Source of the DNA: Bacillota bacterium
GTDB lineage: Bacteria; Bacillota; Ch66; Ch109
Assembly (NCBI GenBank): GCA_050952625.1
Contig: JBMNLH010000001.1
Coordinates: 1,600,001 to 1,664,000, forward strand
Reading direction: 5' to 3'
DNA length: 64,000 bases
Each line of letters opens with the position of its first letter. Within the stretch, counting starts at the first letter, position 1. Shown in pieces: positions 2,301 to 64,000 of the stretch. The position numbers and the translations under genes are program-made. Under the pieces are notes generated by a model, which was not told the DNA's origin, ran no database searches, and saw only the letters and a program-made list of their open reading frames with translations.

Positions 2301-2384
2301 TTCCACATGAAGATACTTGTGGATAAGGAGAATATGTCCAGTCTGGCTACCTATAACAAGTTAACCCGACAATTGGCGTAAGAA

Positions 2385-2467
2385 GTGAACTCGTTCAGCT
2401 TCGCTGAACATCCGAGGCTTCAGATTGAGACTCTACTCCACCTGAAGAGTCTTTTGATTTGGATAAA
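2385..2467 (-). mobile_element. IS200/IS605-like non-autonomous palindromic element (family A), internally deleted copy
   Basis: Matches the other family A copies. On the minus strand it reads TTTAT-CCAAATCAAAAGACT...TTCAGGTGGAGTAGAGTCTC..TCTGAAG...GTTCAGCGAAGCTGAACGAGTTCAC. Confidence 0.7.
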
Positions 2468-12444: not shown

Positions 12445-12560
12445 TTTATCTGATTCACAAGACTTCTGCTTTTGAAAATGAGGGTTACCTTGTTTATACT
12501 TCAGGTGGAGTAGAGTCTCCATCTGAGGCCTCGAGGTTCAGCGAAACTGAACGAGTTCAC
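12445..12560 (+). mobile_element. Family A IS200/IS605-like non-autonomous element
   Basis: TTTAT-CTGATTCACAAGACT...GGGTTACCTTG...TTCAGGTGGAGTAGAGTCTCCATCTGA...GTTCAGCGAAACTGAACGAGTTCAC. Confidence 0.7.
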
Positions 12561-12626
12561 TAGTTAGGACCGTGGCCATTCCTCCGACTCACGTCATTCG
12601 AATGGCCCAGCCTTATGTGTTCCTGA

Positions 12627-27002: not shown

Positions 27003-27164
27003 CCTTCAATCCTCCTAATAAAATATGGTTAGTTATGCCCTGGCACTTAGAGATTCAATCATTTTAAGACCATGCTATATTTTAACACAGATCGGACTGA
27101 TTCTTTCTAATTATAGTATTTTAGCCGGTGTATTACCAGATTATTTCGCAGCCGGTCTCAGTAA

Positions 27165-27279
27165 GTGAACTCATCCAGCATCGCCGAACATCAGGGCTTC
27201 AGGTGGAGACTCAACTCCACCTGAAGTTTGAACAAGGTAACACCCGCTTAGAAGTAAGGGTGCTTTGAACTCAGATATA
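27165..27279 (-). mobile_element. Family A IS200/IS605-like non-autonomous element
   Basis: On the minus strand: CTGAGTTCAAAGCACCCTTACTTCTAAGCGGGTGTTACCTTGTTCAAACTTCAGGTGGAG...GAGTTCAC. Confidence 0.7.
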
Positions 27280-40353: not shown

Positions 40354-40671
40354 TTACCGCACCAACCATCGGTAGTCCTGTCTGCAATCCACGATATAGT
40401 CAACATACACCGTTCGATCCTTGATCTGATACAAAACTAAATACCATTTTTCAACAAACAGCTTATGGTATTTATTGAGCGGTATAAATTCAGTATTAAG
40501 AAACGGACACCGCTCCGGCATTGTTGAAAGGGAACGAATGGCGTCCATCAAGTCGTTTTTCACCTTGCGGGCGGCAGAAGGACTTTTCTGTGCCAGAAAA
40601 CGGATATGGCCCGCCAGCATCTGACGGGCACGGTCGGAAACAATGACCTTATATTGAGGTTTCTTTTCCAT
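40354..40671 (-). CDS. RelE/ParE family toxin
   Basis: YKVIVSDRA, SLSTMPERCP, YLVLYQI, VYVDYIVDCRQD; directly after the antitoxin (start approximate). Confidence 0.85.
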   Translation of the reverse strand: MEKKPQYKVIVSDRARQMLAGHIRFLAQKSPSAARKVKNDLMDAIRSLSTMPERCPFLNTEFIPLNKYHKLFVEKWYLVLYQIKDRTVYVDYIVDCRQDYRWLVR

Positions 40672-40939
40672 GTTCCACCTCGTTAATAATACCGTCAAGG
40701 TATTTGTCCAATTCATCCGGTGTAACTCCCGCTCGTCCTGCCAGACGGTCTTCCTCGACAGCCAACAGTTCTTCCCGTAGTTTTAGCATTTTTTCACGCC
40801 GGGAAAATGCCTCTATATCCATCACCACAAGATCACCCTCGCCGTTTTTCGTAAGGTACACAGGCTCACCAGTGGACTTGCATAAAGCTGCAATTTCATT
40901 ATAATTCTGCCTGATGCTAGCGGACGGTTTAATCAGCAT
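40649..40939 (-). CDS. Phd/YefM family antitoxin
   Basis: IKPSASIRQNYNEI..EPVYLTKNGEGDLVVM. Confidence 0.9.
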   Translation of the reverse strand: MLIKPSASIRQNYNEIAALCKSTGEPVYLTKNGEGDLVVMDIEAFSRREKMLKLREELLAVEEDRLAGRAGVTPDELDKYLDGIINEVEHGKETSI

Positions 40940-41016: not shown

Positions 41017-43218
41017 TTAAGGTTTGTAGCCTGAATTGTTCATCGAAAAGATAACCTCTCCGTCGGATCGCGTAAGAGTAGCGTTCGCAATACCACAGGC
41101 CTTTAAATGTTTGTAAAGGTTTTGATACTGCAGTGTCTGGATATCACTGTAATTTCCATAGTATTTAAGGATTTCGTCCGCCAGTCCAGGGATACTCCGG
41201 CCGGATACTGGCGTCACGCAGAAATCGCGGATAGACGAACCAAAGTCACCCCCATCCCGCGCCGGCTCGTATTTCTCCAGCACATAATTGCCGTTTTCAT
41301 CCTTTTTATAGGTGATGGCTTTCGGAACAACGCATGCGGTTGTTCTGTCCAGAACATTACCATAAAGCCGGTAGGTGGAACTGTAGGTAGTGACGAAAAC
41401 CTTTAAAAATCCATTCTCTTCATAGCTGCCAAAGATCCTGGGGGCAACAACGGTAAAACCTCGCCCCGGTGCCGAATTCTGCTGAATCTCCGTAGCGTAA
41501 ACCATTTTTTCTAGGGGATCGTCACCATCATAAGTAAAATCAGGCAGTTTGATCTCTGCCCTGATCGACAGGGCCGCGTACCACTCCGATGGGGACAGTG
41601 ATTCATCAGTTACGTTATTGCGCACTCCCAGAAGCTCCTTGCACAGCCGCATCATGAGCTGCCCCCGCAGGCCGTCCGCGTTTCCCGCCTCAAACTGCGA
41701 CAGCATATACTGCAAGGCCTCTTCTCCTCCATATTTTTTAATCTTTTCATAATCAAGCGGATGCGCGTCAATGTAAGCTTGGGGATTAGAAGACTCTTTC
41801 GGCGAGGACATAATGATCGCAAGGTTTTCTTCTACCAGTTTCTCCACCTCAACCTCTTTGTTCAGTAAAGCTTTGACTGATGACTCTAAACCCCCGTCTT
41901 CTATTACTCCACCGGTCCAGAGAGTTCCAATCAGCTCTACTGCACCGTTTTGCCGAGCGATTACTAACAGAGGGCTGCCCATGCTGCAGGTTTCCTTGAG
42001 CCATCCATCCTCATCAACCTGCATACCGCCGGCCAGAACTACTTTACTCAAATCTTCTGGCAGTAGCCGGTATTCCAGAGCATAAACATCAATCGGTGTC
42101 TCAGCTAGTGCCTCAAAGGTTTCTACCAATTCCAGGCGGGTAATTTTACGATCAATAATGTTTACCTCTGGGTTTAATTCATAGTTGGCAATGTCCCGAT
42201 CAATTATGGCCTGGGCCAAACTGGTGACTTGGGCTAAATTATCTGCTTCTTTATCTTTGGGATTGGCCGCAAAAGCAACCGCTGCCAGGCATACCGCGAC
42301 AACCGCCAGGATTATGACCCAAAAGGCCGGTTTCCGGTAATTCAGGACATTGATAATCCGCGTCTTGACATGACTTTCGCCAAAAGCCAGCGGATTGACC
42401 GTCAATAGATCAGTTCTTTTCAAGGACAACGACAGCAGTGAACCGGAGTAGCCATCCTTTATGCTTTCCCCCAGCCGGCTCAGCACGCTTTCGTCGCAGG
42501 ACATCTCCATATCTCGGCTCATGAGCCGGAAAGACAACCACATCAATGGATTAAACCAATGGAGAATGAGGGCCAGAAAAGCCAAAGGCTTAATCAGATA
42601 ATCCCGCCGGCGGATGTGCGTGCGCTCATGCTCCAAGATATAAGCCAGGTCAACCGCCCCGACACCTACCGGTACATAGATTTTTGGCCGCATAAAGCCG
42701 CACACAAAGGCGGTACTGATAGCGTCAGTTTCATAAACATTGCCCTCTACACGGGTCGCGGTTTGCAGCCTTCTTTTGGTCCTAACATAAGAAACAACAC
42801 TATAAATCAACAATGCCAGAACCCCGGCAATCCAAATAAGACTAAAAACTTCCGTCCACATCGGCAGGGGATTTCCGCTGGCAGTTGGAACGGCTGGCAG
42901 CAAAGAGGCGTTTGCCATACGATCAACGTTGTCAAGTTCGGGCGATATCGCGGGTGTCTCCATGAAGCGAAGATTATCCGGGATGTATTCCGTCATACTA
43001 ACATTTTGCGGGGTGTTGATCAACGACAAAAAGCTAAAGTCCGAAGTGAAAGAAACTGGACAAATCAGCCGAAAAAATACCGCCGCCCATAAAATATACG
43101 AAAAGACCTTGGGAGCTTTCCTAAGCAGCAGACGAACCAGCATCACGCCCAGAGCCACAAAGGAGGCAGTGATGCTCATGTTGAGGATGGTTGGAAATAA
43201 ATCTTGCAGAATGTTCAT
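41017..43218 (-). CDS. BlaR1/M56 family metallopeptidase with non-PBP extracellular domains
   Basis: ILEHERTHIRRRD (HExxH), HWFNPL, EMSCDE, AFGES; follows BlaI. Confidence 0.9.
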   Translation of the reverse strand: MNILQDLFPTILNMSITASFVALGVMLVRLLLRKAPKVFSYILWAAVFFRLICPVSFTSDFSFLSLINTPQNVSMTEYIPDNLRFMETPAISPELDNVDRMANASLLPAVPTASGNPLPMWTEVFSLIWIAGVLALLIYSVVSYVRTKRRLQTATRVEGNVYETDAISTAFVCGFMRPKIYVPVGVGAVDLAYILEHERTHIRRRDYLIKPLAFLALILHWFNPLMWLSFRLMSRDMEMSCDESVLSRLGESIKDGYSGSLLSLSLKRTDLLTVNPLAFGESHVKTRIINVLNYRKPAFWVIILAVVAVCLAAVAFAANPKDKEADNLAQVTSLAQAIIDRDIANYELNPEVNIIDRKITRLELVETFEALAETPIDVYALEYRLLPEDLSKVVLAGGMQVDEDGWLKETCSMGSPLLVIARQNGAVELIGTLWTGGVIEDGGLESSVKALLNKEVEVEKLVEENLAIIMSSPKESSNPQAYIDAHPLDYEKIKKYGGEEALQYMLSQFEAGNADGLRGQLMMRLCKELLGVRNNVTDESLSPSEWYAALSIRAEIKLPDFTYDGDDPLEKMVYATEIQQNSAPGRGFTVVAPRIFGSYEENGFLKVFVTTYSSTYRLYGNVLDRTTACVVPKAITYKKDENGNYVLEKYEPARDGGDFGSSIRDFCVTPVSGRSIPGLADEILKYYGNYSDIQTLQYQNLYKHLKACGIANATLTRSDGEVIFSMNNSGYKP

Positions 43219-43574
43219 TTGGCCGCCTCCTCAATGATTCGTTTCAGTTCCTCAGCTTCCTGGATGGACAGCTTACGGTTATCCAGGAAGGCGGTCAGGA
43301 ATTTGGGCAGCGATCCGTCAAAGGCTTTTTCCAGTACCGCTCTGCTCTCGTACCGCTGTACATCCTCGCGTTTGACAAGAGCAGTAACCATCGCCTCCTT
43401 ATTCTGCAGGATGCCGCGCTCACAAAGCTTTTTTAAGACGGTATAGGTAGTGGACTTCTTCCAGCCAAGCTTGTCAGCGCACAACCGCACCAACTCGGTG
43501 GAATTGATAGGCTCGTTGTCCCAGATAAGACTGACAAACTTGTACTCAGCATCAAACAGCTTGAATTGTTCCAT
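43215..43574 (-). CDS. BlaI/MecI/CopY family repressor
   Basis: W..STTYTVLKKLCERG, FDGSLPKFL. Likely start MEQFKL at 43574 after AAGGAGG. Confidence 0.9.
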   Translation of the reverse strand: MEQFKLFDAEYKFVSLIWDNEPINSTELVRLCADKLGWKKSTTYTVLKKLCERGILQNKEAMVTALVKREDVQRYESRAVLEKAFDGSLPKFLTAFLDNRKLSIQEAEELKRIIEEAAK

Positions 43575-43592
43575 ATGGTCCGGCCTCCTTAG

Positions 43593-43634
43593 GTTTATTG
43601 CAGTAGACTTCACTATTAGTCTATTGCAATAGAC
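43593..43634. promoter_or_regulatory. Two BlaI-type operator palindromes
   Basis: Perfect GTCTATTGCAATAGAC (43619-43634) and imperfect GTTTATTGCAGTAGAC (43593-43608) just upstream of blaI. Confidence 0.7.
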
Positions 43635-43723
43635 CCGAGTTGTCAATAATCTTTGGCATTTTTTTATTGACATATTAGAAAAACGCCCGATACCTCGGAC
43701 GTTAATGATAACCTTAACTGTAG

Positions 43724-44256: not shown

Positions 44257-45495
44257 TTATTTACCACAACATTTTTTATACTTTTTACCGCTGCCGCAGG
44301 GGCAAGGATCATTGCGGCCAACCTTGGTCCTTGTTTTTAGATCAATCACCTTGGAATCTGTTTGCCCTAATTGAAAAGGCTCAGTGGGTAATGGTCTTAA
44401 GTGTTTCTTTTCTTCCTGAAATAGCTCATTAGGAGTATGCCCCTTTAACACCCATTGCCGGGTATTGTTATGCAGATCCGTGATCTTGCTGGTTAATTGC
44501 CGCACGAAATCAAATGACGGAAACTCAAACCAAGAATTTAAGTACTCAATTATGGCTGTTGATTTGGCATCCAGATTTATTAAATTGATCAATTGTAAAG
44601 CAATTTCATCAGTTTCTTCATTATTTAGCTCATAGTACTGCAACAAAAAACTGATAAGGTCGTTCATCGCCGGAGATCGGTCGATATAATCCGGTTCACC
44701 AGCCTTAAGCAATTGCTGTTTGGTAAACGGATAATAATCAACGTTATCTCGCATACTATGTTCCTCAATAATCTTCTTAGCATCAAAAACTCGATGGTCA
44801 CAAAACCCAAATGACGACCATCGAACTTGTCCATAATGATCCATAGCTACAGACATGACATTAATATACTCGCGAAAATCTATATCCTGTCCGGTAAGCT
44901 GCGAAATTTTCCAATTGATGAACCATGGACTCGCAACACCATAATAATAAAGCATGCCATGGGTTAAGAGGACCCACTCCGTATTGCGCCGGACTATTTT
45001 TTCCAATTCGGGGGTATCGACTTGCCAAAAAGTATCTACCAGTTCCTGAGGGAGGCATAGAACCTTTTGATCATTATTATTCACACCAGGAAAAACAAGG
45101 CTGTACCCCAATAGAGCTTCGGCAGCTCTAGTCTTCATATCATAACCGGTGATAACACCGGAATTCTGCGCAATTAATTTAATCAGACCATACCTTCCTT
45201 GATCCAAGTAAGATAAAACCTCTTTAAATTTCATCGGAATCAATCTGACAAGCTCAGCAGCCAGTTCCGCTTTTCTCAGAGAACTAAGATTATTAAAGCT
45301 AAGCTTCTTACGGATATTATCCATTTCATCTTTGGTTAACCTATTAATCGCATCGGAAAGATCGCAGGGAATCCTGTTGAATTTCTTCCAAAGCCGTCGC
45401 TCTTGCTTGTCCCGCATTTTTTGGCTATAGGCTTTTGCGCTTTCTAAAGCATTTAGTAAGGTATCTTTTGTTTTTTGATCAATTCTTTCATCCAT
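44257..45495 (-). CDS. SEC-C motif protein
   Basis: C-terminal [20 protein letters not shown]; NNTRQW..KGHTP motif. Confidence 0.85.
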
Positions 45496-45573: not shown

Positions 45574-48500
45574 CTAGCTATTCACTATCTTTACCGCATT
45601 ATCTTTGATCTTAGCCACCAGCTCGACAATCCGTTTTTGTTTGAAACCATCAAAGAGCTTGACAAAACTTTGCGGTTTGTCAAAAGGTGGTTTCATTAGC
45701 TCGGAGACATTCTCGATATAACCGTTTTGCACAATATAATCAATGATCTTTTTCACAAAAACAATTTGGGCCTGAGAGAGAGACTGGTCATTAATAAATT
45801 CCGAAAAGGCCGCGCACGCCGCTTCATATTCCAGTTTGGCAATTTTCCGTACCAGCAGACCAAATGGCGTATCCTGATACTCCCGCTGATAATCCGCAGC
45901 GGTACCAAGCTCTCCAGTGAAAATATGCTCCAAGTCTTGGTAGTCTAAAGCAGTAAGCGGTATATTATGCCGCAATTTAAAGATCGCCAGATGGTCACGG
46001 TTTCTCTCAATATAACGGTTAACCTTGAGCTTATAGTCCTCAAAATCATAGGCTGGGCCTAGGCTATCCCCCTCTCTGATTTCAAGAACATGATCGTTAA
46101 GGTTTGTATAGATCGGGGTTCTTCCCCTATCATCAACAATAAACTTAATCAGACCGCGCAGTCCTATGCGCACCTGATCCAAGTTCAAAATATCAGAGCT
46201 TTGCCAAAACTCATCGGTCTGAATGGTGTTGATCAGCTCCAGTTTTTCTTTAATCTGCGGGATAGTGGCCCGCTGGGCCAACATAGCGCAGACGTTGATT
46301 AGCTGCTTTTTACTCTTTTGGAAATGAGGCATCCCCTCGATCTGAGCCAGCATCATCCCATACATAAAGTTGTCAAATCGTTTGGCATACTCGTCCGGGT
46401 CATCAAGATACACAATCGGGGCCAAAAAAGTGATCAGGTTATGTTTATCCACATCAGAAAGGCAGACAAAAGCCGTCGTCTGTTTATACTTTTCAATGTG
46501 CTGCAATTGCATTTTTACCGCTACCAGCTCGGTGTTCAGCGCGTTAATCTGCTGCAGGACCGTTTCAACCAGCCCGGTCCGCATTACCTGGTACGGCTCA
46601 TTAATAAAGGCAGACTGCTGAAGATGATGAATCAAGCGGACTCGTTTCGCAAAGATCGCCTCAGTGAGGCTCAGGGTTTCACTGCCCAGCAAGCCCTCTT
46701 TGTGTTCCCGAAAAAATTCGAAATTTCCCAGATAGTCAAAAATAATAAAGTGGGTTTTGTCCTGTCCGGCCCCAAACAAGTTGGGGCATAGTCTAGTGCC
46801 GCGGCCAATCATCTGCCAGAACTTAGTCTTAGAGCGTACCCGTTTAAAAAAGACCAAGTTAACAATCTCCGGGACATCAATGCCGGTATCCAACATATCT
46901 ACCGAAACGGCGATATGCGGATCTTTTTCCGCTATCTTAAAGTCATCAATGATTGTTTGGGCATAGCTGTCGTCGCAAATTACCCGTTTGGCAAAACGGC
47001 CCCGGTATTGCGGATATAGTTTATCAAACCGCTCGATAATATACTCGGCGTGCTTTTTATTTTGGGCGAAAATGATGGTTTTCCCTAAACGGTCACCACC
47101 AGCGACCTTAATCCCCTTAGTCATTAAATCTTCCAGGACCATGTCCACCGTGGCCTGATTAAAAATAAATTCATTTAACGCTGGGGAAGGAATAAACTCT
47201 GGCATCGCCCCGTCTTCATCGGTAAAATCTTCTTCATAGCGGGCCTTATCTTCTTCGGATAGTTCATCATAGGTAATACCTTGCTCCAAAAACTTAGTTG
47301 TAACCTCAATGTTATAGTAAGGCACTAAAACGTGGTCTTGCTCGACTGCGGTTTCGTAGTCATAGGCATAGGTAGGGACACCGTTTTCCATCTCAAAAAA
47401 GTCATAAGTATTGCGATCAACGTCGGTCTTAGGAGTGGCGGTTAAACCAACCAATAGACAATCAAAATACTCAAAGATAACGCGGTATTTTTTAAAGATG
47501 CTGCGATGGGCTTCATCCACGATAATCAAATCAAAATGGGCCGGGGTAAATAACCGCTGGCCCTCGCTCTTCGCTGTATCAATGGCGTTTAGCATCGTCG
47601 GATAGGTGGAGAAGACAATGCGGGCGGATTTATCATCCTTGTTACTTAGCAGGTTACACAGAGACATATCTGGGAGGTAGTTTTTAAAGGCATCCTTGGC
47701 CTGGATAACCAAGGCGGTTCGGTCCGCTAAAAACAAAGTATTCGTGATATATCCTCCCCGGGATAAGACATCAGTCAAACTAGCGGCTGTTCTGGTTTTA
47801 CCCGTCCCGGTGGCCATCACCAGCAAGGCTTTGCGATGGCCGGTCATAATGGCTTCCGTCACCGCTCGGATGGCTTCCTTCTGGTAGTAGCGATCAGTAA
47901 TTTTATCGTCAATCAGGATTTCACTTAGAATTTTCCGTTCGCGCCGGCGGTTCATCAGTTTTTCCAAGTCGGGTTTAGAAAACACGCCGCTAACCTTCCG
48001 TTGGGGTGAGGTTAGGTCATCCCACAGATAGGTTTCAAAGCCATTGGTAGTAAACATCATCGGCCGCCGGCCGGTCATTTTCTCTAAGCAGTCTGCGTAC
48101 AGCTTGACCTGTTGCGTGCCAATCTTCGGGTCCTTGGCGGTTCGCTTGGCTTCGATAACAGCCAGGGGCAACCCGTCTTTGCCGTAAAGCACATAATCAG
48201 CATAACCTTTGCCCTCGTAATTGGGCATGCCGTCAAGTTCCACTTCTTCCTGCACATCATCGCCAAAAACCCAGCCCAGGAGTTTTAAGTCCACATCGAT
48301 ATACTTTTTGCGGGTCAGGAATTCTGAAATATTCTCTGGCGCAAACTGGCGTTCTTCTTTGTTATGTTCTTTATTTGCGGTCAATTGTTCGCTCATGGCC
48401 GCAATCTGGGCGCGCAGGGCTTCAATCTCAGAATCCTTTTGTTCAATCAGGCTGTTTTTTTCTTTGATTTTGGCCTCATCAATAATGACCTTTTCTGCCG

Positions 48501-48921
48501 GGATCTTTCCTTCATCAAAACGGCGTTCTTCATAGTTTGACCCATAACAATAATCAATCCACTGGACGAATTCAAACAAAGAGGCCAGGGACAGAACCGC
48601 ATCACTGCGGCTGATCGCTTTCTCCGTATGTACCGCCAAGTTGCCCAGCTTAATGATATAAGGCAGCTTACTCCAGGTTTGGTTATCCAGCGCAAATCTA
48701 AAAGAAGGTTCGTGAATTAATGACTGCAAATTATCCTTATAAGGCAAAGTGATAGTGTTATCAGCCGAATAGACCCATTTCACCGCCAGCTCAAAGGCCT
48801 TACGGCTACCCACTGCCGCCATGGCCGGAGAGGTGGCGAGTACCCGTTCCGCTTCCAGGCAAGCATTAGCAAACAAGGTATATTCGGTTTGTCCCTGAAG
48901 GAATGCGAAGTTTGCCGACAT
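45574..48921 (-). CDS. hsdR: Type I restriction endonuclease subunit R
   Basis: Nuclease ADY..VIEAK, Walker A MATGTGKT, DEAH, GLTATP, QMIGRGTR. Confidence 0.95.
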   Translation of the reverse strand: MSANFAFLQGQTEYTLFANACLEAERVLATSPAMAAVGSRKAFELAVKWVYSADNTITLPYKDNLQSLIHEPSFRFALDNQTWSKLPYIIKLGNLAVHTEKAISRSDAVLSLASLFEFVQWIDYCYGSNYEERRFDEGKIPAEKVIIDEAKIKEKNSLIEQKDSEIEALRAQIAAMSEQLTANKEHNKEERQFAPENISEFLTRKKYIDVDLKLLGWVFGDDVQEEVELDGMPNYEGKGYADYVLYGKDGLPLAVIEAKRTAKDPKIGTQQVKLYADCLEKMTGRRPMMFTTNGFETYLWDDLTSPQRKVSGVFSKPDLEKLMNRRRERKILSEILIDDKITDRYYQKEAIRAVTEAIMTGHRKALLVMATGTGKTRTAASLTDVLSRGGYITNTLFLADRTALVIQAKDAFKNYLPDMSLCNLLSNKDDKSARIVFSTYPTMLNAIDTAKSEGQRLFTPAHFDLIIVDEAHRSIFKKYRVIFEYFDCLLVGLTATPKTDVDRNTYDFFEMENGVPTYAYDYETAVEQDHVLVPYYNIEVTTKFLEQGITYDELSEEDKARYEEDFTDEDGAMPEFIPSPALNEFIFNQATVDMVLEDLMTKGIKVAGGDRLGKTIIFAQNKKHAEYIIERFDKLYPQYRGRFAKRVICDDSYAQTIIDDFKIAEKDPHIAVSVDMLDTGIDVPEIVNLVFFKRVRSKTKFWQMIGRGTRLCPNLFGAGQDKTHFIIFDYLGNFEFFREHKEGLLGSETLSLTEAIFAKRVRLIHHLQQSAFINEPYQVMRTGLVETVLQQINALNTELVAVKMQLQHIEKYKQTTAFVCLSDVDKHNLITFLAPIVYLDDPDEYAKRFDNFMYGMMLAQIEGMPHFQKSKKQLINVCAMLAQRATIPQIKEKLELINTIQTDEFWQSSDILNLDQVRIGLRGLIKFIVDDRGRTPIYTNLNDHVLEIREGDSLGPAYDFEDYKLKVNRYIERNRDHLAIFKLRHNIPLTALDYQDLEHIFTGELGTAADYQREYQDTPFGLLVRKIAKLEYEAACAAFSEFINDQSLSQAQIVFVKKIIDYIVQNGYIENVSELMKPPFDKPQSFVKLFDGFKQKRIVELVAKIKDNAVKIVNS

Positions 48922-48937
48922 TCAATTCACCTCGCGG

Positions 48938-50041
48938 TCAATCAAAATACTCGCTCATTAGGCTGTCAAACAGGTATTGAGTTTCGTCGATTGCTTTTTT
49001 TACCAGGGCTTTCTGTTCTTCGATTTTGGTGACAATGGTAGCGAATTGGTTTTGGAGAGCCAAAGGGGCAATTGGAATTCTCAAATTTTTGATTAAGGAA
49101 AATTCGATATTATCAGCAGTAACAGCCCTTACATTTTTTATGATGCTACCTTGCATTAATATAAAAAAATATAATAAATATTCCGGTAAAACATTTTCAT
49201 TAGTAACAAATGCCTTCATATCTTGATTAATAGCGATATCAACTGTATTAATTGCAACTGGCAGCATCTTTTTCAAAATACCACTTCTAATAACCATTAA
49301 GACGGAATAAGAAGGTATTAATTTAGTTGAACTATTTTCTATTGCATATTCATTTATATGGTCAATGCTATCGTTAATCCAAATAGTTTTCATATCTTTG
49401 GGAGTAACCCAAGGAATGTTACCAATATAATACTCACTACGACTTTTCGCGGGAGTACCACCACCTATTATTCTAGCACACACATTGTCAACTATATCTA
49501 CCTCCCACCCCTTTTCATTGGTGATAGGATCCCCAAACATATCGCAAAAGATGGATTTGATAAGGTTATCCAGCTCCGCTAGCTGCTGTTTACGCAGGGC
49601 AAGCAGTTCTGCGGCGGTGTCTAAGGTTTTGGCGATTTCCTTTTGGGTCTCGAGGGGCGGAATAGGTATAACAAGTTTTTTAAGCCATTTAAAATGTCTA
49701 TTATATCCAGTATTGGGGATTTGTTTATTTATAAAATAATAATATAGGTATTTGTAATCTAAATTTTCTCTTTTGCTTTTTAATAATTTAACCCCATCTG
49801 CTCCTAAGAAAAAAGGAGTGTCTATATACTTTATTATTCTTGTATGATCTCCAAAAACTATTACAGGAACATTACTATATAAACCATCGTGATTGTTCCG
49901 ATAGCCAGCAATAAGATTTTGCCCTTGGTCAATTATAGGGTATAACCCTTGTTCTAAATAATCTTCTTTTTTAATCTTAGTCGCATTTTTAGTGTCATCT
50001 AGAATTACTTCTTCAAAATCAAGAACTTCCCACTTACCCAC
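48938..50041 (-). CDS. hsdS: Type I R-M specificity subunit S
   Basis: Two TRDs with conserved IPIPPLETQ/IPIAPLALQ helices; AT-rich variable regions; lies between hsdM and hsdR. Confidence 0.92.
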   Translation of the reverse strand: MGKWEVLDFEEVILDDTKNATKIKKEDYLEQGLYPIIDQGQNLIAGYRNNHDGLYSNVPVIVFGDHTRIIKYIDTPFFLGADGVKLLKSKRENLDYKYLYYYFINKQIPNTGYNRHFKWLKKLVIPIPPLETQKEIAKTLDTAAELLALRKQQLAELDNLIKSIFCDMFGDPITNEKGWEVDIVDNVCARIIGGGTPAKSRSEYYIGNIPWVTPKDMKTIWINDSIDHINEYAIENSSTKLIPSYSVLMVIRSGILKKMLPVAINTVDIAINQDMKAFVTNENVLPEYLLYFFILMQGSIIKNVRAVTADNIEFSLIKNLRIPIAPLALQNQFATIVTKIEEQKALVKKAIDETQYLFDSLMSEYFD

Positions 50042-51503
50042 CGATAAGCCCCCTCAACTCCTCCATCTTGGAGGCAATATCAAGATTTAGCTTATCCAGG
50101 CGGGCCATTATCTCCATCGGCGGATCATAAACCACCTTTTCATAGACAATCTCTTTATAACGGTTAATGGATAAATCATAGCCATTGGCTTTTATGGCCG
50201 ACTTCTCCACAAAAAAGCTCTGCTCGGTTGGTTTGCGTTCAGCTTCTCCCCCTAGGTTGTGAAAACGGGTAATAATATCAGGAATATCATTATCCTCAAT
50301 GGGCGAACGTTTGTCATCCAAAGAAAAGCCATCCGCTTTCATATCGTAGAACCAAACCTTATCAGTGCCGCCGGCTCCGGTTTTAGTAAAAACCAGAACG
50401 GCAGTACTGACCCCGGCATACGGTTTAAAAACACCGCTGGGCATGGAGATAACCGCCTGCAGTTGATGATTTTCCACCAACTCTTGGCGCAAGGCTTTAT
50501 GGGCCTTGGTCGTGCCGAACAAAACCCCATCTGGCACAATACAGGCGCAGCGTCCACCTTTCCGAAGCATCCGCAAAAAAAGGGCGACAAATAAAAGCTC
50601 TGTCTTTTTGGTGTTGCAAACGGCCTTCAAATTATCATGGATACTTTCGGCATCAACCGTCCCGGTAAATGGCGGATTAGCCAGGACAATATCATAAGCG
50701 GCAGCTATGCTGTTCTGCTTGGAAACGCTGTCCACATAGTCAATCCGAGGCTGAGTAATGGAATGGAGCATTAGGTTCATAGCGGACAGACGTAACATGG
50801 TTCGATCGGTATCAAAACCGGTGAACATTTCCCCCGTAAAATGCTCCCATTGTTCACTGGTCATCTCCGCTTCGTAGCGTTCACGGATAAACTCGGCTGA
50901 GGAGACCAAGAAACCAGCGGTCCCGCAAGCCGGGTCACAAATTCGATCGTTTGGAGTAGGAGCCAGCAGCCGGACCATCATATCGCGGATATGCTTGGGG
51001 GTTCTAAACTGACCGTTTTGCCCGGCTGTGGCCAGCTTGCTTAGCATATACTCATAAAGGTCGCCCTGCATGTCTAAATCTTGGATATCATGTTCATACA
51101 GTTCATCTAGGCCGGTAATTATCTTTTGCAATACTTGGGGGGTTGGGATTAAAAACATTGCATCCTGCATATAGCGAGTAAAGGCGGACGCATTTTTCCC
51201 GTTCATAGTTTTGATAAAGGGAAATACCTTTGTGCCGACAATATCGTATATCTCACGCGAATCTTTGGTTTTAAACTTGCTCCAGCGCATAGCCTGTCCC
51301 GCTTCATCCGGTGGAAAAATTTTAGGCATTGCTTCACCGCTTAGTGCTTCGAACCTCTCGTTCTCCAGTTCCTTTTCATCCAGAGAACGAATGAACATTA
51401 AATAAGTAAGCTGTTCGATAACGGTTAAGGGATTGGTAATCCCACCCGCCCACATATCGGTCCAGATTTTATCAACTTTGTTGCGAATTTCTCCGGTCAG
51501 CAT
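50034..51503 (-). CDS. hsdM: Type I R-M N6-adenine methyltransferase subunit M
   Basis: GQFRTP, DPACGTAGFL, NPPF. Confidence 0.95.
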   Translation of the reverse strand: MLTGEIRNKVDKIWTDMWAGGITNPLTVIEQLTYLMFIRSLDEKELENERFEALSGEAMPKIFPPDEAGQAMRWSKFKTKDSREIYDIVGTKVFPFIKTMNGKNASAFTRYMQDAMFLIPTPQVLQKIITGLDELYEHDIQDLDMQGDLYEYMLSKLATAGQNGQFRTPKHIRDMMVRLLAPTPNDRICDPACGTAGFLVSSAEFIRERYEAEMTSEQWEHFTGEMFTGFDTDRTMLRLSAMNLMLHSITQPRIDYVDSVSKQNSIAAAYDIVLANPPFTGTVDAESIHDNLKAVCNTKKTELLFVALFLRMLRKGGRCACIVPDGVLFGTTKAHKALRQELVENHQLQAVISMPSGVFKPYAGVSTAVLVFTKTGAGGTDKVWFYDMKADGFSLDDKRSPIEDNDIPDIITRFHNLGGEAERKPTEQSFFVEKSAIKANGYDLSINRYKEIVYEKVVYDPPMEIMARLDKLNLDIASKMEELRGLIGG

Positions 51504-51690
51504 TTATCTGCTCCTGTCCTGGTAATATAATAATTTACCAAATTTCCGGGCTAAATGACATTTATTAGCCTAAACGACCTAAGAAAACAATAGAATAAGA
51601 AAACTTTGCTATTGAATACATTGTATTCTTTGAATTACCTTAAAACAATAGAAAAACGCCAAATTATATCAATCAAGCGTTTTCGCTACT

Positions 51691-51743
51691 ATCGCCAGCC
51701 TCATTTCCAATCTTATCGGAAGAGCAGCGTTGGCCATTTGGTT
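51691..51743 (-). repeat. Duplicate of the 3' end of the serine hydrolase gene (52680-52732)
   Basis: 53 bp with 3 mismatches by manual alignment. Confidence 0.9.
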
Positions 51744-51764
51744 ATAGAATATCTTTTGGTTAGG

Positions 51765-52367
51765 TTATGGTATGTGGAAATCCTCAATAGGATCTAAAGG
51801 ACTAAAATAACCCTTAATACAATTCGGATTCCTTACGCAAATTTGGATATGGTTTTTTTCTCTAAAACCAGCATTTGGGTATAATTCATCACCTTCAATA
51901 AATAGGCCTCTCACTGAATCATATTCCCTATGCCCTTCATCTTTGTTAAAAGCATGAACCATTTCTATTACTGCACAATCAAGGTGCCTTAATAGTAGAT
52001 CCGTTGAAGAACCAACCCTTTTATTCTCAGGTAATTTTCCACCGGTTTTATCAATAGCTTCTTTAAGAATCTTATATCCCCTTTTTAAGATCTGCAGCGA
52101 ATTATATTCCATTAGATTAAGGCAATATCCTAAATCAATAATTGCGCCTATAACCGCAACATCTTTAATCTTACCCCTATGTTTCAATTCTTCGGCATAT
52201 TCAAACGCTCTATTGGGATTATTTTCCCAAAAATATATGCCGTGACCTAACCAATCGTAAGAATTTTGACTCTTTGTTAAACGCTCATTAAGATATATTA
52301 TTCGGTTATAAACAGTTAAGTCACATCCGTGAAAACCGAGTACGAAATTAGGCAATGTCGAATACAT
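51765..52367 (-). CDS. Putative ADP-ribosyltransferase-fold (PARP/DUF3990-like) protein, candidate toxin
   Basis: GFHGC (H13), WLGHGIYFWE (Y45) and HIQICVRN have the motif spacing of H-Y-[E/Q] ART folds. Confidence 0.65.
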   Translation of the reverse strand: MYSTLPNFVLGFHGCDLTVYNRIIYLNERLTKSQNSYDWLGHGIYFWENNPNRAFEYAEELKHRGKIKDVAVIGAIIDLGYCLNLMEYNSLQILKRGYKILKEAIDKTGGKLPENKRVGSSTDLLLRHLDCAVIEMVHAFNKDEGHREYDSVRGLFIEGDELYPNAGFREKNHIQICVRNPNCIKGYFSPLDPIEDFHIP

Positions 52368-52375
52368 ATGAACTC

Positions 52376-52525
52376 CTACCTATAATGGGATTCTAGTTTA
52401 CCTGTAGAATCACAAATACCGGCTTTAACCAATATTTTAATAGCATCTTCTTTTTTGCTTTCGGCTATTTTTTTTTGGTATTTTTCCATCTGGGCTAACA
52501 GTTCTTTTAATTCTTTATTAGACAC
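52376..52525 (-). CDS. Small 49 aa protein (not in ORF track), candidate antitoxin
   Basis: GTG start after GGTGAT; MSNKELKELLAQMEKYQKKIAESKKEDAIKILVKAGICDSTGKLESHYR*. Its TAG overlaps the AGGAG SD of the ART gene. Confidence 0.7.
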   Translation of the reverse strand: MSNKELKELLAQMEKYQKKIAESKKEDAIKILVKAGICDSTGKLESHYR

Positions 52526-52583
52526 AACGATCACCATCCATATTACATCAATGGGCTTTATACCTATATTATATCAAATCTGC

Positions 52584-52628
52584 GTCCATATTTTATCAAC
52601 TTTGTTGCGAATATCTCCGGTCAGCATT
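52584..52628 (-). repeat. Duplicate of the hsdM 5' end (51460-51504)
   Basis: 45 bp with 2 mismatches; reads MLTGDIRNKVDKIWTQI* versus hsdM MLTGEIRNKVDKIWTD. Confidence 0.9.
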
Positions 52629-52666
52629 GATCTTGCTTAATTGTTGATCCCCTTTCGTGGGGCATA

Positions 52667-53710
52667 TTAATTCACCGACATCGCCAGCCTCATTGCCAAT
52701 CTTATGGGAAGAGCAGCGTTGGCCATCTGGTTTACATCACCAACCAAAAACAAATCCTTTAAAGGATAATAAAAAGCAAAAGAACCGGTTGATCCAGAAT
52801 GACCAATTAACTCACCTTTTCCCATAAAGAGGGTGGCCAATCCATTTAAAGGAATTTGCATATATCCCCCACCATAGTAAATCGGCCCCATAGTAACTTG
52901 CAATTTATGATAGGTTGACAATTTCTGAAAAATTACCTTGTTAAACAATCTCCCGGTAAAGAAAGCCTTAATAAAAATCATCAATTCACTAGCTGTAGTA
53001 ATACAGCCTCCACTTGCCCGGCTGCTCAAAACTAACTTAGGCCGATGGATAGCCTTATTTTTATAATAAATATTAGGTATATAATCATTTTCGCTTTCGG
53101 GAAGATATGTATTTTTAAGCTCTAATGGTTCAAAAATATACTGCCGGTATGCTTCCGACAATCTTAAATTACTTGCTTTTTCAATTACTTCACCCAGCAG
53201 ATCAAAGTTTATATCGGCATAGTAAGCCCTTTGCCCGGTACGCGGAGCAAAATGAGGTTTTAATTTCTTTACTTCGGCCATCAATTCATCGAAAGTGAGA
53301 TAAAGATCCTCTTTAATAGCCCGGTTCTTAAGACTGTTTTTCCCTTCTTCATACACATCAGGCAACCCACTGATCTGAAACAGCAAATCGGATATGGTTA
53401 ATTCAAACGTGTATTCCTTTCCACCATAAACATGAAGCCCGCTTAATACAGAATTATCAAAGTACCTGGTGATCTTTTCGTCAAGTGACAGCTTTCCCTG
53501 CTCAAGTAAGATCAAGATGCAGGTGGTGGTAAACAGCTTGGTGATGCTCGCCATCAGCAGAGGAGAATCTATATTCTTGCCGCTATACCCCATGTTAAAA
53601 GACAAATCACCACTTGTGTTTTCTATAAATAATACTGCCTCATTGATTTGCTTCGAGCTTGTTAGTTTAGCAAAAATCTTTTCGAATTTTTGCGTTCTAC
53701 TTACTCCCAT
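52667..53710 (-). CDS. Serine hydrolase, beta-lactamase family (cytoplasmic)
   Basis: SxxK ASITK, Y.D.NFDLLG, GHSGSTG; no signal peptide. Confidence 0.88.
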   Translation of the reverse strand: MGVSRTQKFEKIFAKLTSSKQINEAVLFIENTSGDLSFNMGYSGKNIDSPLLMASITKLFTTTCILILLEQGKLSLDEKITRYFDNSVLSGLHVYGGKEYTFELTISDLLFQISGLPDVYEEGKNSLKNRAIKEDLYLTFDELMAEVKKLKPHFAPRTGQRAYYADINFDLLGEVIEKASNLRLSEAYRQYIFEPLELKNTYLPESENDYIPNIYYKNKAIHRPKLVLSSRASGGCITTASELMIFIKAFFTGRLFNKVIFQKLSTYHKLQVTMGPIYYGGGYMQIPLNGLATLFMGKGELIGHSGSTGSFAFYYPLKDLFLVGDVNQMANAALPIRLAMRLAMSVN

Positions 53711-53874
53711 TAGTTTCTCCTTTCCTTAAATATTTGTTACTTCCATTATACTAAATTCTGGAGATATTTTTACTCTTAGACCAGTAATATTAAGGCTCAG
53801 CGGTATTTTTTTAATGCAATAACTGATTCCGCATAAACCCACACAGAATCAACACACACAGACTAAACACAATA

Positions 53875-53933
53875 TTGACAATCCGAGGATGCGGTGGTAT
53901 ATTGTTATTTAGTTAGTTACTTGACTAACTAAC
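53875..53933 (+). promoter_or_regulatory. SigmaA promoter plus GntR operator
   Basis: TTGACA-17 bp-TATATT with an extended TG, followed by the palindrome TAGTTAGT-N6-ACTAACTA. Confidence 0.75.
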
Positions 53934-53952
53934 CATGTAACCAACAAAGGAA

Positions 53953-54354
53953 GTGGCGCAGTTGACCGGACACTTTAGCAACGAGCGGCCAATCTTTATC
54001 CAGCTTGCTGAAATGCTGGAGGACGCGATCCTGAGTGGTGTATATAACGAGGATGACCAAGTCCCCTCCATCACGGAGTTTTCCGTTGCTTATAAAATGA
54101 ACCCGGCCACCGCACTCAAGGGAGTCAACATCCTTGTAGACGCCGGTCTGCTGTATAAAAAGCGAGGGCTGGGGATGTTTGTTGCAAAGGGTGCGCGGGA
54201 AAAGCTGATAGAGAGGCGAAAGGAACGCTTTTATCATGCTTTTGTTGAACCGATGATTCTTGAAGCGATACGACTCAGCATTAACGAAGCAGAGCTTTTC
54301 GAAATGGTGAAAAGAGGGTTAAGTGAACATTTGACAAGGCGGAAAGAGGGTTGA
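53953..54354 (+). CDS. GntR family regulator, YtrA subfamily
   Basis: PIFIQLA, PSITEFS..MNPATALKG, KKRGLGMFV. Confidence 0.9.
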   Translation: MAQLTGHFSNERPIFIQLAEMLEDAILSGVYNEDDQVPSITEFSVAYKMNPATALKGVNILVDAGLLYKKRGLGMFVAKGAREKLIERRKERFYHAFVEPMILEAIRLSINEAELFEMVKRGLSEHLTRRKEG

Positions 54355-55220
54355 GTAACATGGGAATTAAAATCCAAAATGTCACCAAAAGCTTTGGTGC
54401 TACCCGCGCGCTTAACGGCGTCAGCCTCAATATTGCCGAGGGACAAATATATGGACTATTGGGAAATAACGGTGCGGGCAAAACAACACTTCTGAACATT
54501 ATCGCAAATCGCTTGTACACTGATAGTGGCGAGGTGTTGATCGACGACGAACCAATTTCAGACAACGACCGCGCGCTGGGCAAGGTGTTTTCGATCGGTG
54601 AACAAAACCTTTACCCCGATGAGATGCGAGTCCACAGGGCTTTGGCCGTAACAAAGCTGTTCTACCCGGGCTTTGATCTTCAATATGCAAACGAGCTAGC
54701 GCGACAATTCGGGCTGGACACCAAAAAAAAGATCACCGCATTGTCTACCGGTTACGCCTCAATCTTCCGGTTTGTCCTCGCTCTTTCGGTGAACACACCA
54801 TATCTGCTGCTAGACGAGCCAATGCTGGGACTTGACGCAATGCATCGCGACATGTTTTGCAAGCTTCTGATTAAGAAATACAGCGAAAACCCCTGCACCA
54901 TTGTGATCTCAACTCACCTGATCCAAGAGGTGGCAAATCTCATTGAGCATACGATCATCATTAAAAATGGACATATCCTCAAGGATATGCCACGTGAGGA
55001 ACTGCTTGACAGCGGCTATACCGTCTCCGGTCCGGCGGAACTGGTGACCATCTATATTAGCGGGCGCGAGGTATTGTCGGTCAATAGTCTTGGCAGACTG
55101 AAAACAGCCTGTGTTCAAGGTAAAGCCGAACCAGCCGACCTGCCTGCTGGACTGGAGCTTGGCAGGCTGAGCTTGCAGGACTATTTTATCAGTCTGATGA
55201 ACGAGGAGGATTACAAATGA
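54351..55220 (+). CDS. ABC transporter ATP-binding protein
   Basis: GNNGAGKT, LSTGY, LLDEP, STH. Confidence 0.92.
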   Translation: MSNMGIKIQNVTKSFGATRALNGVSLNIAEGQIYGLLGNNGAGKTTLLNIIANRLYTDSGEVLIDDEPISDNDRALGKVFSIGEQNLYPDEMRVHRALAVTKLFYPGFDLQYANELARQFGLDTKKKITALSTGYASIFRFVLALSVNTPYLLLDEPMLGLDAMHRDMFCKLLIKKYSENPCTIVISTHLIQEVANLIEHTIIIKNGHILKDMPREELLDSGYTVSGPAELVTIYISGREVLSVNSLGRLKTACVQGKAEPADLPAGLELGRLSLQDYFISLMNEEDYK

Positions 55221-55966
55221 ACACGATGAATATAAGACCGGCTTTCCAATACAGATTCCTTGATACGTTAAAGGGTGTAGGAATCTTCTATGCCATCATG
55301 GCTGTACTCATGGCAGGTATCAGCTGCCTTGTTTTTTATGCGGTAAGTAAGGGCGGTAAAGTGTCGGTTAGCTTTTTCGCCTTTGAATTCGCCGCAGCCA
55401 TCACGCTGTTTGTTATGGGTATCACAACGATACGGGAGGATATGCGGCTCATGCTGCAAAACGGTATCGGGCGACGCACCATCTTTGTGACAGAGCTTCT
55501 TGTGGCACTATCTGTCTCTTTGCTCCTCGCTATTGCCGGCGAGCTGCTAATTGCCGTCGGGCAGGTTGTTATAACGAGCCGGTCGGAGTTCTTTATCACC
55601 GACCTCTTTCAGATAATCTACGCCAATGGGATCAACTACAACCTGACTTTGGGTGCCCGTTTTGAAAGCATTGTCCTTGCGTTCGGTTTATATACGTTCG
55701 TATATCTCGCTGGGATGTTCATCTCTCTGCTCTTCTACCGATTGAACAAAATCTGGACCCTGATCGTCGCTATCGGGGCACCGCTGCTCCTAATCATGGG
55801 ACTGCGGATAGCACTAACACCCGGAAGTTTTCTTGCATTAGCACTTGGTACGATGCTCGAATTCGCTCTAAGCAGTCCGTGGGCACTGTTTCTTTGCTTC
55901 CTACTGGCTGCTGTGCTCATAAGTTTCCTTAACTTGATCGCGATAAGACGCGCGCCGATAAAATAG
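55217..55966 (+). CDS. ABC transporter permease
   Basis: About 6 TM helices, QNGIGRRT motif; ATGA overlap with the ATPase. Confidence 0.8.
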   Translation: MNTMNIRPAFQYRFLDTLKGVGIFYAIMAVLMAGISCLVFYAVSKGGKVSVSFFAFEFAAAITLFVMGITTIREDMRLMLQNGIGRRTIFVTELLVALSVSLLLAIAGELLIAVGQVVITSRSEFFITDLFQIIYANGINYNLTLGARFESIVLAFGLYTFVYLAGMFISLLFYRLNKIWTLIVAIGAPLLLIMGLRIALTPGSFLALALGTMLEFALSSPWALFLCFLLAAVLISFLNLIAIRRAPIK

Positions 55967-55978
55967 ATAGGGGTATCA

Positions 55979-56058
55979 GGAGTTACCTTGTTCAAACTTC
56001 AGGTAGAGCAGAGTCTCCACCTGAATTTCCATTTTTCAGCGAAGCTGGACAAGTTCAC
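55979..56058 (+). mobile_element. Family A element, right portion
   Basis: GGAGTTACCTTGTTCAAACTTCAGGTAGAGCAGAGTCTCCACCTGAA...TTCAGCGAAGCTGGACAAGTTCAC. Confidence 0.7.
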
Positions 56059-63456: not shown

Positions 63457-63667
63457 TTTATCTGAATCAAAAGACTCCCACTTCTATAAGTGGGGGTTAC
63501 CTTGCATAATCAGAAAGTATAAGTGGACTTTCTGATTATAAGTAGTGCAACTAGGGCTTCCGCCTTGCACCAAGGGCTTGGCGTAAGCCAAGTTTTTTAT
63601 TTAAACGTCAGGCGGAGCAGAGTCTCCACCTGGAGCCTCGATGTTCAGTGAAGCTGACCGAGTTCAC
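63457..63667 (+). mobile_element. Family A element, most complete copy, with nested insert (63505-63598)
   Basis: TTTAT-CTGAATCAAAAGACTCCCACTTCTATAAGTGGGGGTTACCTTG-[insert]-...GAGTTCAC. Confidence 0.78.
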
Positions 63668-64000
63668 TCAATAACTATGACCGCACTGTTTTGGCCATCT
63701 ATCCAGTTATACAGGAATTCAGCATGGCTGGTAAAATTCCGCACACACATATGGGAACGGGGGAAACGTCCCAATTGTATGGAGATATTCTTTCGTTCCC
63801 GGGTCTACCTTCTCTCCATTCTTTTCTTCATATTCTACCGGCACGCCGTGAATATAGGCCCCGCCGGTGAACCGAATGGCAAAAGGCGCATAACCAGCCA
63901 CATCCGACGTGTTTTTTTTGCAGATATTCAAACCGGTCTACCTTATTAATAACCTTATAACTGCCAAGAGTGGTTTCAAAGGAGCCATCGCCTGATAACC
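63664..64000 (-). CDS. L,D-transpeptidase (YkuD) C-terminal part, two homopolymer frameshifts; 5' end outside window
   Basis: YAPFAIRFTGGAYIHGVP and, after correcting a G5 run, RSHMCVRN (catalytic His/Cys). Confidence 0.75.

Follow-up and report, generated by a model that had tools for sequence, protein, structure and literature searches.

A probable two-gene toxin-antitoxin-like module with a CmdT-related ADP-ribosyltransferase beside a type I restriction-modification operon in a Bacillota genome

The stretch of DNA analysed here, called the window, comprises 64,000 nucleotides (64 kb) of a Bacillota genome (assembly GCA_050952625.1, contig JBMNLH010000001.1, positions 1,600,001 to 1,664,000). 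Its minus strand carries two small adjacent genes, one for a protein of about 50 aa and one for a 200-aa protein with a predicted ADP-ribosyltransferase (ART) fold, upstream of a type I restriction-modification (R-M) operon. Our results point to a self-contained, horizontally mobile, two-gene module of the toxin-antitoxin (TA) kind, and we give this reading, together with the mechanism proposed below, a probability of about 0.6. By profile comparison, the enzyme is clearly related to the CmdT toxins that belong to the three-gene CmdTAC system (PD-T4-9), and the pair appears as a chaperone-free form with the partner gene first. What is known are the CmdT-type ART toxins of CmdTAC; what is new is a large, unannotated two-gene family. 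The features of the locus are listed in table 1.

Table 1. Features of the gene pair and its surroundings (window coordinates)
Feature	Position	Strand	Details
Small partner gene, candidate antitoxin	52376..52537	-	53 aa from ATG 52537; stop TAG 52378-52376
Junction of the two genes	52373..52378	-	stop TAG overlaps AGGAG (52377-52373), 5 nt ahead of the ART-gene ATG
200-aa ART-fold gene, CmdT homologue, candidate toxin	51765..52367	-	
Possible promoter of the pair	52568..52576	-	TGATATAAT, extended -10-like, consensus match only
Repeat D1, right copy (hsdM 5' remnant)	52575..52633	-	ATG 52627, 17 codons, then stop
Repeat D2, right copy (3' end region of the beta-lactamase-fold gene as it now stands)	52680..52732	-	
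Repeat D2, left copy (ancestral 3' end of the beta-lactamase-fold gene, detached)	51691..51743	-	21 nt downstream of the ART stop
Type I R-M operon (context, outside the module)	45574..51503	-	hsdM 50034-51503, hsdS 48938-50041, hsdR 45574-48921

The gene pair

The smaller gene more likely starts at the in-frame GTG 52525, which gives 49 aa, than at the ATG 52537. The N-terminus of the 49-aa form, (M)SNKELKELL, agrees with the MSxKE... of most homologues in A2, our alignment and profile of 36 small proteins, and we read a GGTGATC ahead of this GTG as possibly Shine-Dalgarno-like. The product ends in ...LVKAGICDSTGKLESHYR and is predicted to form a two-helix structure. An intergenic gap of 8 nt separates its stop from the ATG of the ART gene (52367), which is close spacing without overlap of the ORFs. 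The 200-aa protein contains the motifs FHG (H13), GHGIYFW (Y45) and HIQICV (Q175). GC content is 0.33-0.35 over the pair versus 0.47-0.50 in hsdM, whose start (51503) lies 261 nt downstream of the ART gene on the same strand. An earlier, sequence-only reading of this DNA had described a 49-aa ORF with this length, end and C-terminus, a 200-aa ORF with FHG, GxGIYFW and HIQICV motifs, AT-richness of the pair and a position upstream of hsdM in the same orientation, and all of these were found as described. The pair is single-copy, as a search of its own genome returned no further copies. The possible promoter TGATATAAT precedes GTG 52525 by 43 nt, at the 3' end of an hsdM remnant (hsdM', discussed below). 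It is absent from the list of a promoter scan that gave 5 promoter-like sites versus 6.2 in shuffles, and no terminator was found in the scan between the ART gene and hsdM.

Fold and family of the 200-aa enzyme

The AlphaFold2 model of the 200-aa protein, built on an alignment of 28 members, reached a pLDDT of 89.6 and a pTM of 0.85. The top Foldseek matches in PDB were the catalytic domains of PARP2, PARP1 and exotoxin A (E from 2e-3, probability 0.96-1.00 at ranks 1-12, TM 0.34-0.41). At the level of the predicted structure, this confirmed the ART fold that had been proposed from motifs, namely a split beta-sheet of the PARP/exotoxin-A-like type. The residues put forward as an H-Y-(E/Q) triad also held up: H13, Y45 and Q175 are invariant in 28/28 aligned homologues and lie on strands 8-16, 44-48 and 169-178 of the model, respectively. 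Further invariant residues in the same alignment are E48, E158, H173 and C177. The catalytic domains of PARP, exotoxin A and diphtheria toxin are the best structural matches, and the window protein resembles them in the order of the H-Y-[E] clade motifs, although identity is 12-18%, TM is about 0.4 and it has Q for the catalytic E. Transferase activity is assumed here by analogy, since CmdT is reported to vary between E, D and Q at this position. Among viral models, ART-PolyVal-like domains were found in the top matches (named rows at E 1.1e-4 and 1.7e-4), and the best match (E 1.8e-6) carries the name ParB/Sulfiredoxin.

The family is large. In a collection clustered at 90%, 6,761 proteins of 6,811 candidates matched at E<=1e-3, and the 120 members listed are 197-222 aa long and nearly all unnamed or 'hypothetical'. 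Clustering at 50% identity left 1,537 clusters at E<=1e-10 and 2,621 at E<=1e-3, the latter count taking in CmdT-type proteins too. The pair has no dedicated model in PADLOC-DB v2, Pfam or NCBIfam. NCBIfam gave the 200-aa protein a chance match alone (E 0.08), and a profile search of PDB sequences with the ART family gave nothing below E 0.5.

Two other families were compared and rejected. For DUF3990 (PF13151), there was no Pfam match at E<=1, and hhalign gave a probability of 1.9%, aligning the N-terminal HG...GxGFY stretch only. Some members nevertheless carry the label 'DUF3990 domain-containing' (a UniRef name, an Atlas cluster), and a small upstream ORF overlaps the start of the DUF3990 gene in 3/5 loci, but these small partners are unrelated in sequence to those of the window family. 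Pfam places DUF3990 in the ART clan (PMC7955679). In three genuine DUF3990 loci (L126-L128), the small ORF (74-123 aa) overlaps the start by 4 nt, and an ORF of 73-87 aa lies downstream. Membership of DarT was rejected since neither protein has a DUF4433, macrodomain or NADAR match in Pfam; DarT structures are also absent among the Foldseek PDB matches listed. DarTG resembles the window pair in placing an ART-fold toxin in a two-gene TA or defence module that acts on nucleic acid, which is presumed for the window pair, but the window partner is a 50-aa candidate binder, whereas the DarG antitoxin (macrodomain/NADAR) is an enzyme that removes ADP-ribose.

Relationship to CmdT and the CmdTAC system

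The family profile A1 was run over 301 genomes of the phylum of the window and gave 10 matches at E<=1e-5, in the genome of the window itself and in nine distant genomes (E 1e-6 to 3e-13). The nine distant loci share one layout: downstream of the ART gene come a small ORF of 64-114 aa and, after it, an ORF of about 140-150 aa. These ART genes encode 146-246 aa as read, one of them being split into ORFs of 67 and 117 aa. Three distant loci were scanned with PADLOC: two of the three ARTs matched PD-T4-9_A (E 1e-6 and 6e-10) and one had no match, while the proteins of about 140 aa matched PD-T4-9_C in 3/3 loci (E 5e-36 to 7e-20). One such protein, scanned in Pfam, matched SecB. The order of ART, small ORF and ORF of about 140 aa is the CmdT-CmdA-CmdC layout.

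Aligned with these CmdT-like ARTs by hhalign, the window family A1 scored 99.7% (E 5.5e-26) over 157 columns. The motifs paired as FHGC with (F/Y)HGT, GHGIYFWE with GxGIYFFE, and HIQICVRN with QIQ(I/L)CV(K/R). Used directly, profile A1 gives CmdT-like proteins just 15-59 bits. Profile against profile, the 200-aa enzyme is thus a clear relative of the CmdT toxins.

CmdT itself is reported to have an exotoxin-A-like predicted fold with an HY-[E,D,Q] triad, and defence requires its Y41 (PMC11618068). In single-stranded RNA, it ADP-ribosylates adenine at N6 within GA dinucleotides, and it blocks translation. According to the same source, CmdA aids the folding of CmdT, which depends on it for soluble accumulation, and also neutralises it; the CmdA C-terminus is a ClpXP degron, CmdC stabilises CmdA, and a T4 capsid protein titrates CmdC.

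The window pair is like CmdTAC in several respects. The enzymes are homologous over the whole domain, have H / GxGxYF / xIQxCV motifs and are of similar size. Each system has a small helical partner, that of the window carrying an L-x2-AG[IL] motif that resembles the CmdA N-terminus. Both systems are sporadically distributed and carried on mobile elements. However, the gene order is inverted in the window pair, with the partner first; this partner has about 50 aa, stops directly behind the conserved motif and has no long, disordered C-terminal chaperone-addiction region as in CmdA; window-type loci have no SecB-like CmdC; and the PADLOC CmdT models barely detect the window enzyme (E 0.003). 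Searching with seven CmdC-like proteins by tblastn gave matches in 0/80 homologous loci (defined below). In the window, the same search gave one 30-residue match at 1000-1086 (E 0.004), far from the pair, which we take as chance. The PD-T4-9_C model matched 22/401 genomes of the phylum, and at E<=1e-8 the genome of the window yielded nothing. From the sequences, the module therefore appears to be a two-gene, chaperone-free form with the partner first.

The novelty that the sequence-only reading had seen in the pair stands only in part: no library model of its own exists for the pair, but its enzyme is a homologue of CmdT, a component of the known CmdTAC/PD-T4-9. A literature search that did not extend to supplements or extended-data figures of the CmdTAC work, where such homologues may appear, turned up no account of a natural two-gene relative of CmdT. 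Loci of the CmdTAC type are fairly frequent in the phylum sample (L090-L123), and several of them, e.g. L096 and L114, have stops or a split ART gene.

The small partner

The conservation of the small gene was examined in 80 loci, the best homologous loci from contigs of one genome per species, which span many phyla at 49-61% identity. A related small ORF was found directly upstream of the ART homologue in 80/80, as the sequence-only reading had anticipated. Profile A2 detected it at E<=1e-3 in every locus, including the 45/45 that had no part in its construction, versus 5 of the 4,748 remaining same-strand stop-to-stop frames in these loci. Relative to the estimated ART start, the stop of the small ORF falls between 56 nt ahead of it and 30 nt beyond it, and is 24 nt beyond it in 20 loci. 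These are two small co-oriented genes, tightly spaced or overlapping and conserved as a pair, as is typical of type II TA systems. In IMG/VR, the small ORF was present in 43 of the 49 testable loci, several near-identical copies being among them. In RefSeq plasmids, both genes are annotated as CDS with the name 'hypothetical protein'. On plasmid pRL8 of Rhizobium johnstonii, the two genes overlap by 4 nt and lie beside traH/B/F/A.

The consensus of the small protein has a helical N-terminus rich in lysine and glutamate, then (F/L)L-x2-AGI-x4-G-x-L-x3-Y-(R/K), often as the C-terminal end. No DNA-binding Pfam family was found in the 36 small proteins at E<=0.01; their sole Pfam matches were to nSTAND_NTPase4 (2) and GA-like (1), at E 0.0018-0.0037. 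A DNA-binding domain for autoregulation is common in type II antitoxins, but not universal.

Binding of the small protein to the ART is supported by complex prediction. With both alignments, three runs gave an ipSAE of 0.78 versus 0.27 for the best control, with at least 87% of the contacts in common and a partner pLDDT of at least 84; at the level of a prediction, the AlphaFold-type check proposed for the pair speaks for a complex. The mark for this score was reached by 58/80 solved complexes and 2/110 mismatched pairs, and these counts are approximate, since own alignments were used. The predicted interface comprises ART residues 34, 36, 38, 89-113 and 128-146, that is two long helices and an invariant loop, and nearly the whole small protein. 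This model suggests a blocked substrate-binding surface or stabilisation, rather than a plug in the NAD+ site.

A correspondence with CmdA was sought by ranking. Profile A2 was run over the ORFs of 34 CmdTAC-type loci, 454 distinct ones when those under 40 aa are left aside. The 14 ORFs flagged as being in the CmdA position took ranks 1, 2, 4, 6, 9, 10, 11, 14, 15, 25, 30, 67, 112 and 132 (Mann-Whitney p 5e-9), the best match having E 0.003 and 12.9 bits. By position, ranks 3 and 8 look like further CmdA genes that the flagging filter missed. An hhalign comparison of A2 with seven CmdA-position proteins pairs window residues 9-40 with CmdA 10-38, the expected stretch. These results are weakly but consistently in favour of the small partner corresponding to the N-terminal, toxin-binding part of CmdA. 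In HigBAC, the system without its chaperone-addiction (ChAD) tail is reported to be a plain toxin-antitoxin pair, and ChAD tails to be graftable (10.1101/2024.02.24.581848).

Insertion site and distribution

A second genome of the same genus, G001 (78% complete), shares the neighbouring genes (91-96% identity) but lacks the pair. There, the beta-lactamase-fold gene (window 53757-52679) directly joins the sequence of window 51743-51616, which is followed by 65 nt matching the 3' end of hsdR (window 45574-45638 vs G001 contig L089, 1629-1693, 92%), a 92-aa gene absent from the window and a PNPOx gene (window 44261-43716). Because of this empty site, the 935-bp segment 52678-51744, which holds the pair, is taken to be specific to the genome of the window. 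With a remnant of hsdR left behind, G001 probably lost hsdMSR, rather than the window genome gaining it.

The segment is bounded by two imperfect direct repeats. D1 has 59 nt, with 88% identity between its right copy and the beginning of the resident hsdM (51451-51509), and corresponds to the first 17 hsdM codons. Over 45 nt of the right copy (52584-52628), identity to the hsdM start in another genus (G004) is 93%, so that this part is closer to the G004 gene than to the resident hsdM. D2, of 53 nt, has 94% identity between its copies, and its left copy is contiguous with the beta-lactamase-fold gene in G001. The arrangement is gene end, short spacer, hsdM', pair, gene end, long spacer, hsdM. 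It looks like the product of a Campbell-type single crossover of a circle of about 1 kb that carried the pair and a foreign copy of the junction.

The pair was found in 0/5 other genomes of the same taxonomic family that were searched. The family occurs in 70 plasmid records, 35 of them conjugative, and in 52 viral contigs. In INPHARED phages there are just 2 records, one phage filed twice, with a partial match of 52 residues. RNA-library contigs from four metatranscriptomic studies (anaerobic-digester, biogas) match the pair without differences. The pieces cover 51913-52378, 51834-52006, 52268-52450, 51669-51864, 52045-52320 and 52573-52736, and the piece 52268-52450 bridges both ORFs. Stretches that no piece covers do not speak for silence.

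A tie to the R-M system was not supported beyond co-location in a variable hotspot. The sequence-only reading had asked whether homologues are enriched near defence genes and had suggested that the pair is possibly an abortive back-up to the R-M system, and neither idea found general support. Genes like hsdM, hsdS or hsdR were present within 6 kb in 0/80 homologous loci, and tblastn of the window HsdM, HsdS, HsdR and beta-lactamase-fold protein against these loci gave nothing below E 0.86. The neighbours are heterogeneous: the 149 nearest contain 176 Pfam families, none more than 5 times (Epimerase 5, Phage_integrase 3, nSTAND3 2), there is no conserved third gene among these 149 ORFs, and PADLOC matches are scattered.

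Proposed mechanism and alternatives

The best reading, by analogy with CmdTAC, is a type II-like TA or defence module whose ART toxin may target RNA. It is founded on the fold, the conservation of the catalytic residues, homology to CmdT, the strict conservation of the small gene, the absence of a chaperone, a sporadic distribution on mobile elements and a strain-specific insertion, and from these we infer toxicity, neutralisation, an RNA target, a trigger and a role in defence. Our confidence in a TA-like ART module as such is about that in the reading as a whole, while RNA as the target is a more tentative element, at somewhat less than even odds.

The protein of about 50 aa would be made just before the enzyme from the same transcript, bind the ART and keep it inactive. 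The binding surface would be the helical sub-domain (helices 88-108 and 128-143) together with the invariant loop 33-39. The partner may be the toxin-binding N-terminal part of CmdA minus the chaperone-addiction tail, and with no such tail the module would need no SecB-like chaperone. Once free, the toxin would most likely ADP-ribosylate single-stranded RNA (mRNA), by analogy with CmdT, and so arrest translation. The toxin could be released when the labile small protein is lost following host shut-off, or when a phage product displaces this protein, and release would result in abortive phage infection or in stabilisation of the carrier element.

Several observations weigh against this reading. 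The Pfam PARP match of the 200-aa protein (E 3.8e-4, 20.4 bits) is under the 26.7-bit cut-off, which 2/3 family members scanned narrowly passed. PADLOC PD-T4-9_A matches it weakly (E 0.0034 and 0.0071; 15 and 14.5 bits) over just residues 9-60 and 35-101. The Foldseek TM of about 0.4 is modest, and the third residue of the triad is Q175, not E. The hhalign comparison of A2 with CmdA is not significant (probability 2%, E 0.024). A reversed-profile control of the ranking reached a best rank of 18 (p 6e-5), so that part of the CmdA signal is a composition effect. H13, Y45 and Q175 are not among the listed contacts of the complex, and occlusion of the active site is therefore not indicated. The RNA-library pieces suggest only weakly that the pair is transcribed, as the libraries may contain DNA and the contigs show neither strand nor ends. 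Finally, no clear defence-island signal was seen among the neighbours, for which no formal enrichment test was run.

As far as the complex model goes, the small protein might just as well help the enzyme to fold or activate it. Taken further, this would make it an obligatory subunit of a constitutive complex that modifies a specific phage or host target, and the pair would not be a classical TA system. CmdA is required for soluble accumulation of CmdT (PMC11618068), the predicted interface avoids the catalytic residues, and neither a DNA-binding domain nor a degron is recognisable in the small protein, all of which would suit such a subunit. However, an upstream small gene, tight coupling, sporadic distribution and carriage on plasmids are typical of TA pairs, and the partner in CmdTAC also neutralises the toxin (PMC11618068). 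We consider a subunit of this kind unlikely.

The sequence-only reading had left room for an NAD+-consuming enzyme. The 200-aa protein would then be an NADase toxin, the small protein its inhibitor, and arrest would come from depletion of NAD+. ART-fold NAD+ glycohydrolase toxins exist, and the glutamine at the third catalytic position (Q175) would be compatible with this activity. On the other hand, CmdT, the closest characterised relative, transfers ADP-ribose to RNA, its family tolerates E, D or Q at that position, and the fold matches are transferases. Given the homology to CmdT, ADP-ribosylation of RNA is a better guess than NAD+ depletion, which we regard as distinctly improbable.

The carriage of family members on viral contigs and on conjugative plasmids beside tra genes, with phage ART-PolyVal domains among the structural matches, would also suit a module with which mobile elements counter host defence or compete with rivals. 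In that case, the ART would modify one of the host's defence proteins, as AcrIF11 does, or a component of a rival, and the small protein would be an adaptor or immunity factor. The homology of the enzyme is nevertheless to CmdT defence toxins and not to known anti-defence ARTs, the pair is chromosomal here with no adjacent mobile-element genes, and the protein is a single domain of 200 aa without a secretion or delivery domain, which makes this a very doubtful explanation. That the small ORF, which is short, lysine/glutamate-rich and was missed by the ORF track, is a chance frame beside a 200-aa gene that alone is real is hardly tenable, given its conserved motif, its presence in all 80 loci across many phyla versus 5/4,748 control frames, the RefSeq CDS annotation on plasmids and a complex model that favours binding.

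Neighbouring genes and other features of the window

The hsdM, hsdS and hsdR genes of the resident operon, the last encoding 1,115 aa, have strong type I R-M scores in Pfam and PADLOC. HsdR has an N-terminal DUF4145 (residues 23-110) ahead of the usual HSDR_N/ResIII/EcoEI_R_C. Just downstream of hsdR, a 412-aa protein with a C-terminal SEC-C motif (44257-45495, minus strand) replaces the 92-aa gene of G001. Its PADLOC matches are C-terminal only (PDC-S12, E 2e-9; E1-E2, E 3.5e-6).

On the plus strand at 53757-55979, genes for a GntR-type regulator, an ABC ATPase and a membrane protein lie between the GNAT and beta-lactamase-fold genes. The latter two are adjacent in G001, and 53757-55979 is therefore another strain-specific insertion at the hotspot. 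A BlaR1-type M56 sensor peptidase (733 aa) and a regulator of the penicillinase-repressor family (152 aa) are encoded at 41017-43673 (minus strand), a few kb from the beta-lactamase-fold gene at 52667-53710. There is also a 120-aa ORF at 40354-40716 (minus strand) with a ParE_toxin Pfam match (E 1.4e-7). A dispersed repeat of about 65-109 nt was found in at least 4 copies in the window (2384-2447, 12484-12561, 27164-27271 and 63604-63668), which are 78-85% identical to an intergenic piece of G001 (L083 924-1030).

Implications

The members of the family that we saw are annotated as 'hypothetical protein' or mislabelled as DUF3990, which is an annotation gap. To our knowledge, no enzyme class other than CmdT has been described that acts against viruses by ADP-ribosylating the bases of mRNA, and CmdT is known to us only within three-gene chaperone systems. 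A far more widespread two-gene form, found across many phyla and on conjugative plasmids as well as viral contigs, would widen the known extent of bacterial RNA ADP-ribosylation, and would offer a minimal inhibitor of 50 aa for study. As an evolutionary test case, it could also show how toxin-antitoxin-chaperone (TAC) systems develop out of plain TA pairs; the modularity of ChAD is documented for HigBAC (10.1101/2024.02.24.581848).

A wider and quite tentative reading is that the family is the natural, chaperone-independent form of a large, cross-phylum CmdT family of mRNA-ADP-ribosylating enzymes, with the antitoxin of about 50 aa as the sensor and CmdTAC as the derived state. The conserved C-terminal tail of the small protein, G-x-L-x3-Y-[RK], would then be displaced or degraded on infection, and CmdTAC would have resulted from grafting a ChAD tail and a SecB-like chaperone onto a two-gene ancestor. 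If this is true, ADP-ribosylation of RNA would be far commoner as a means of bacterial immunity or addiction than CmdTAC alone implies.

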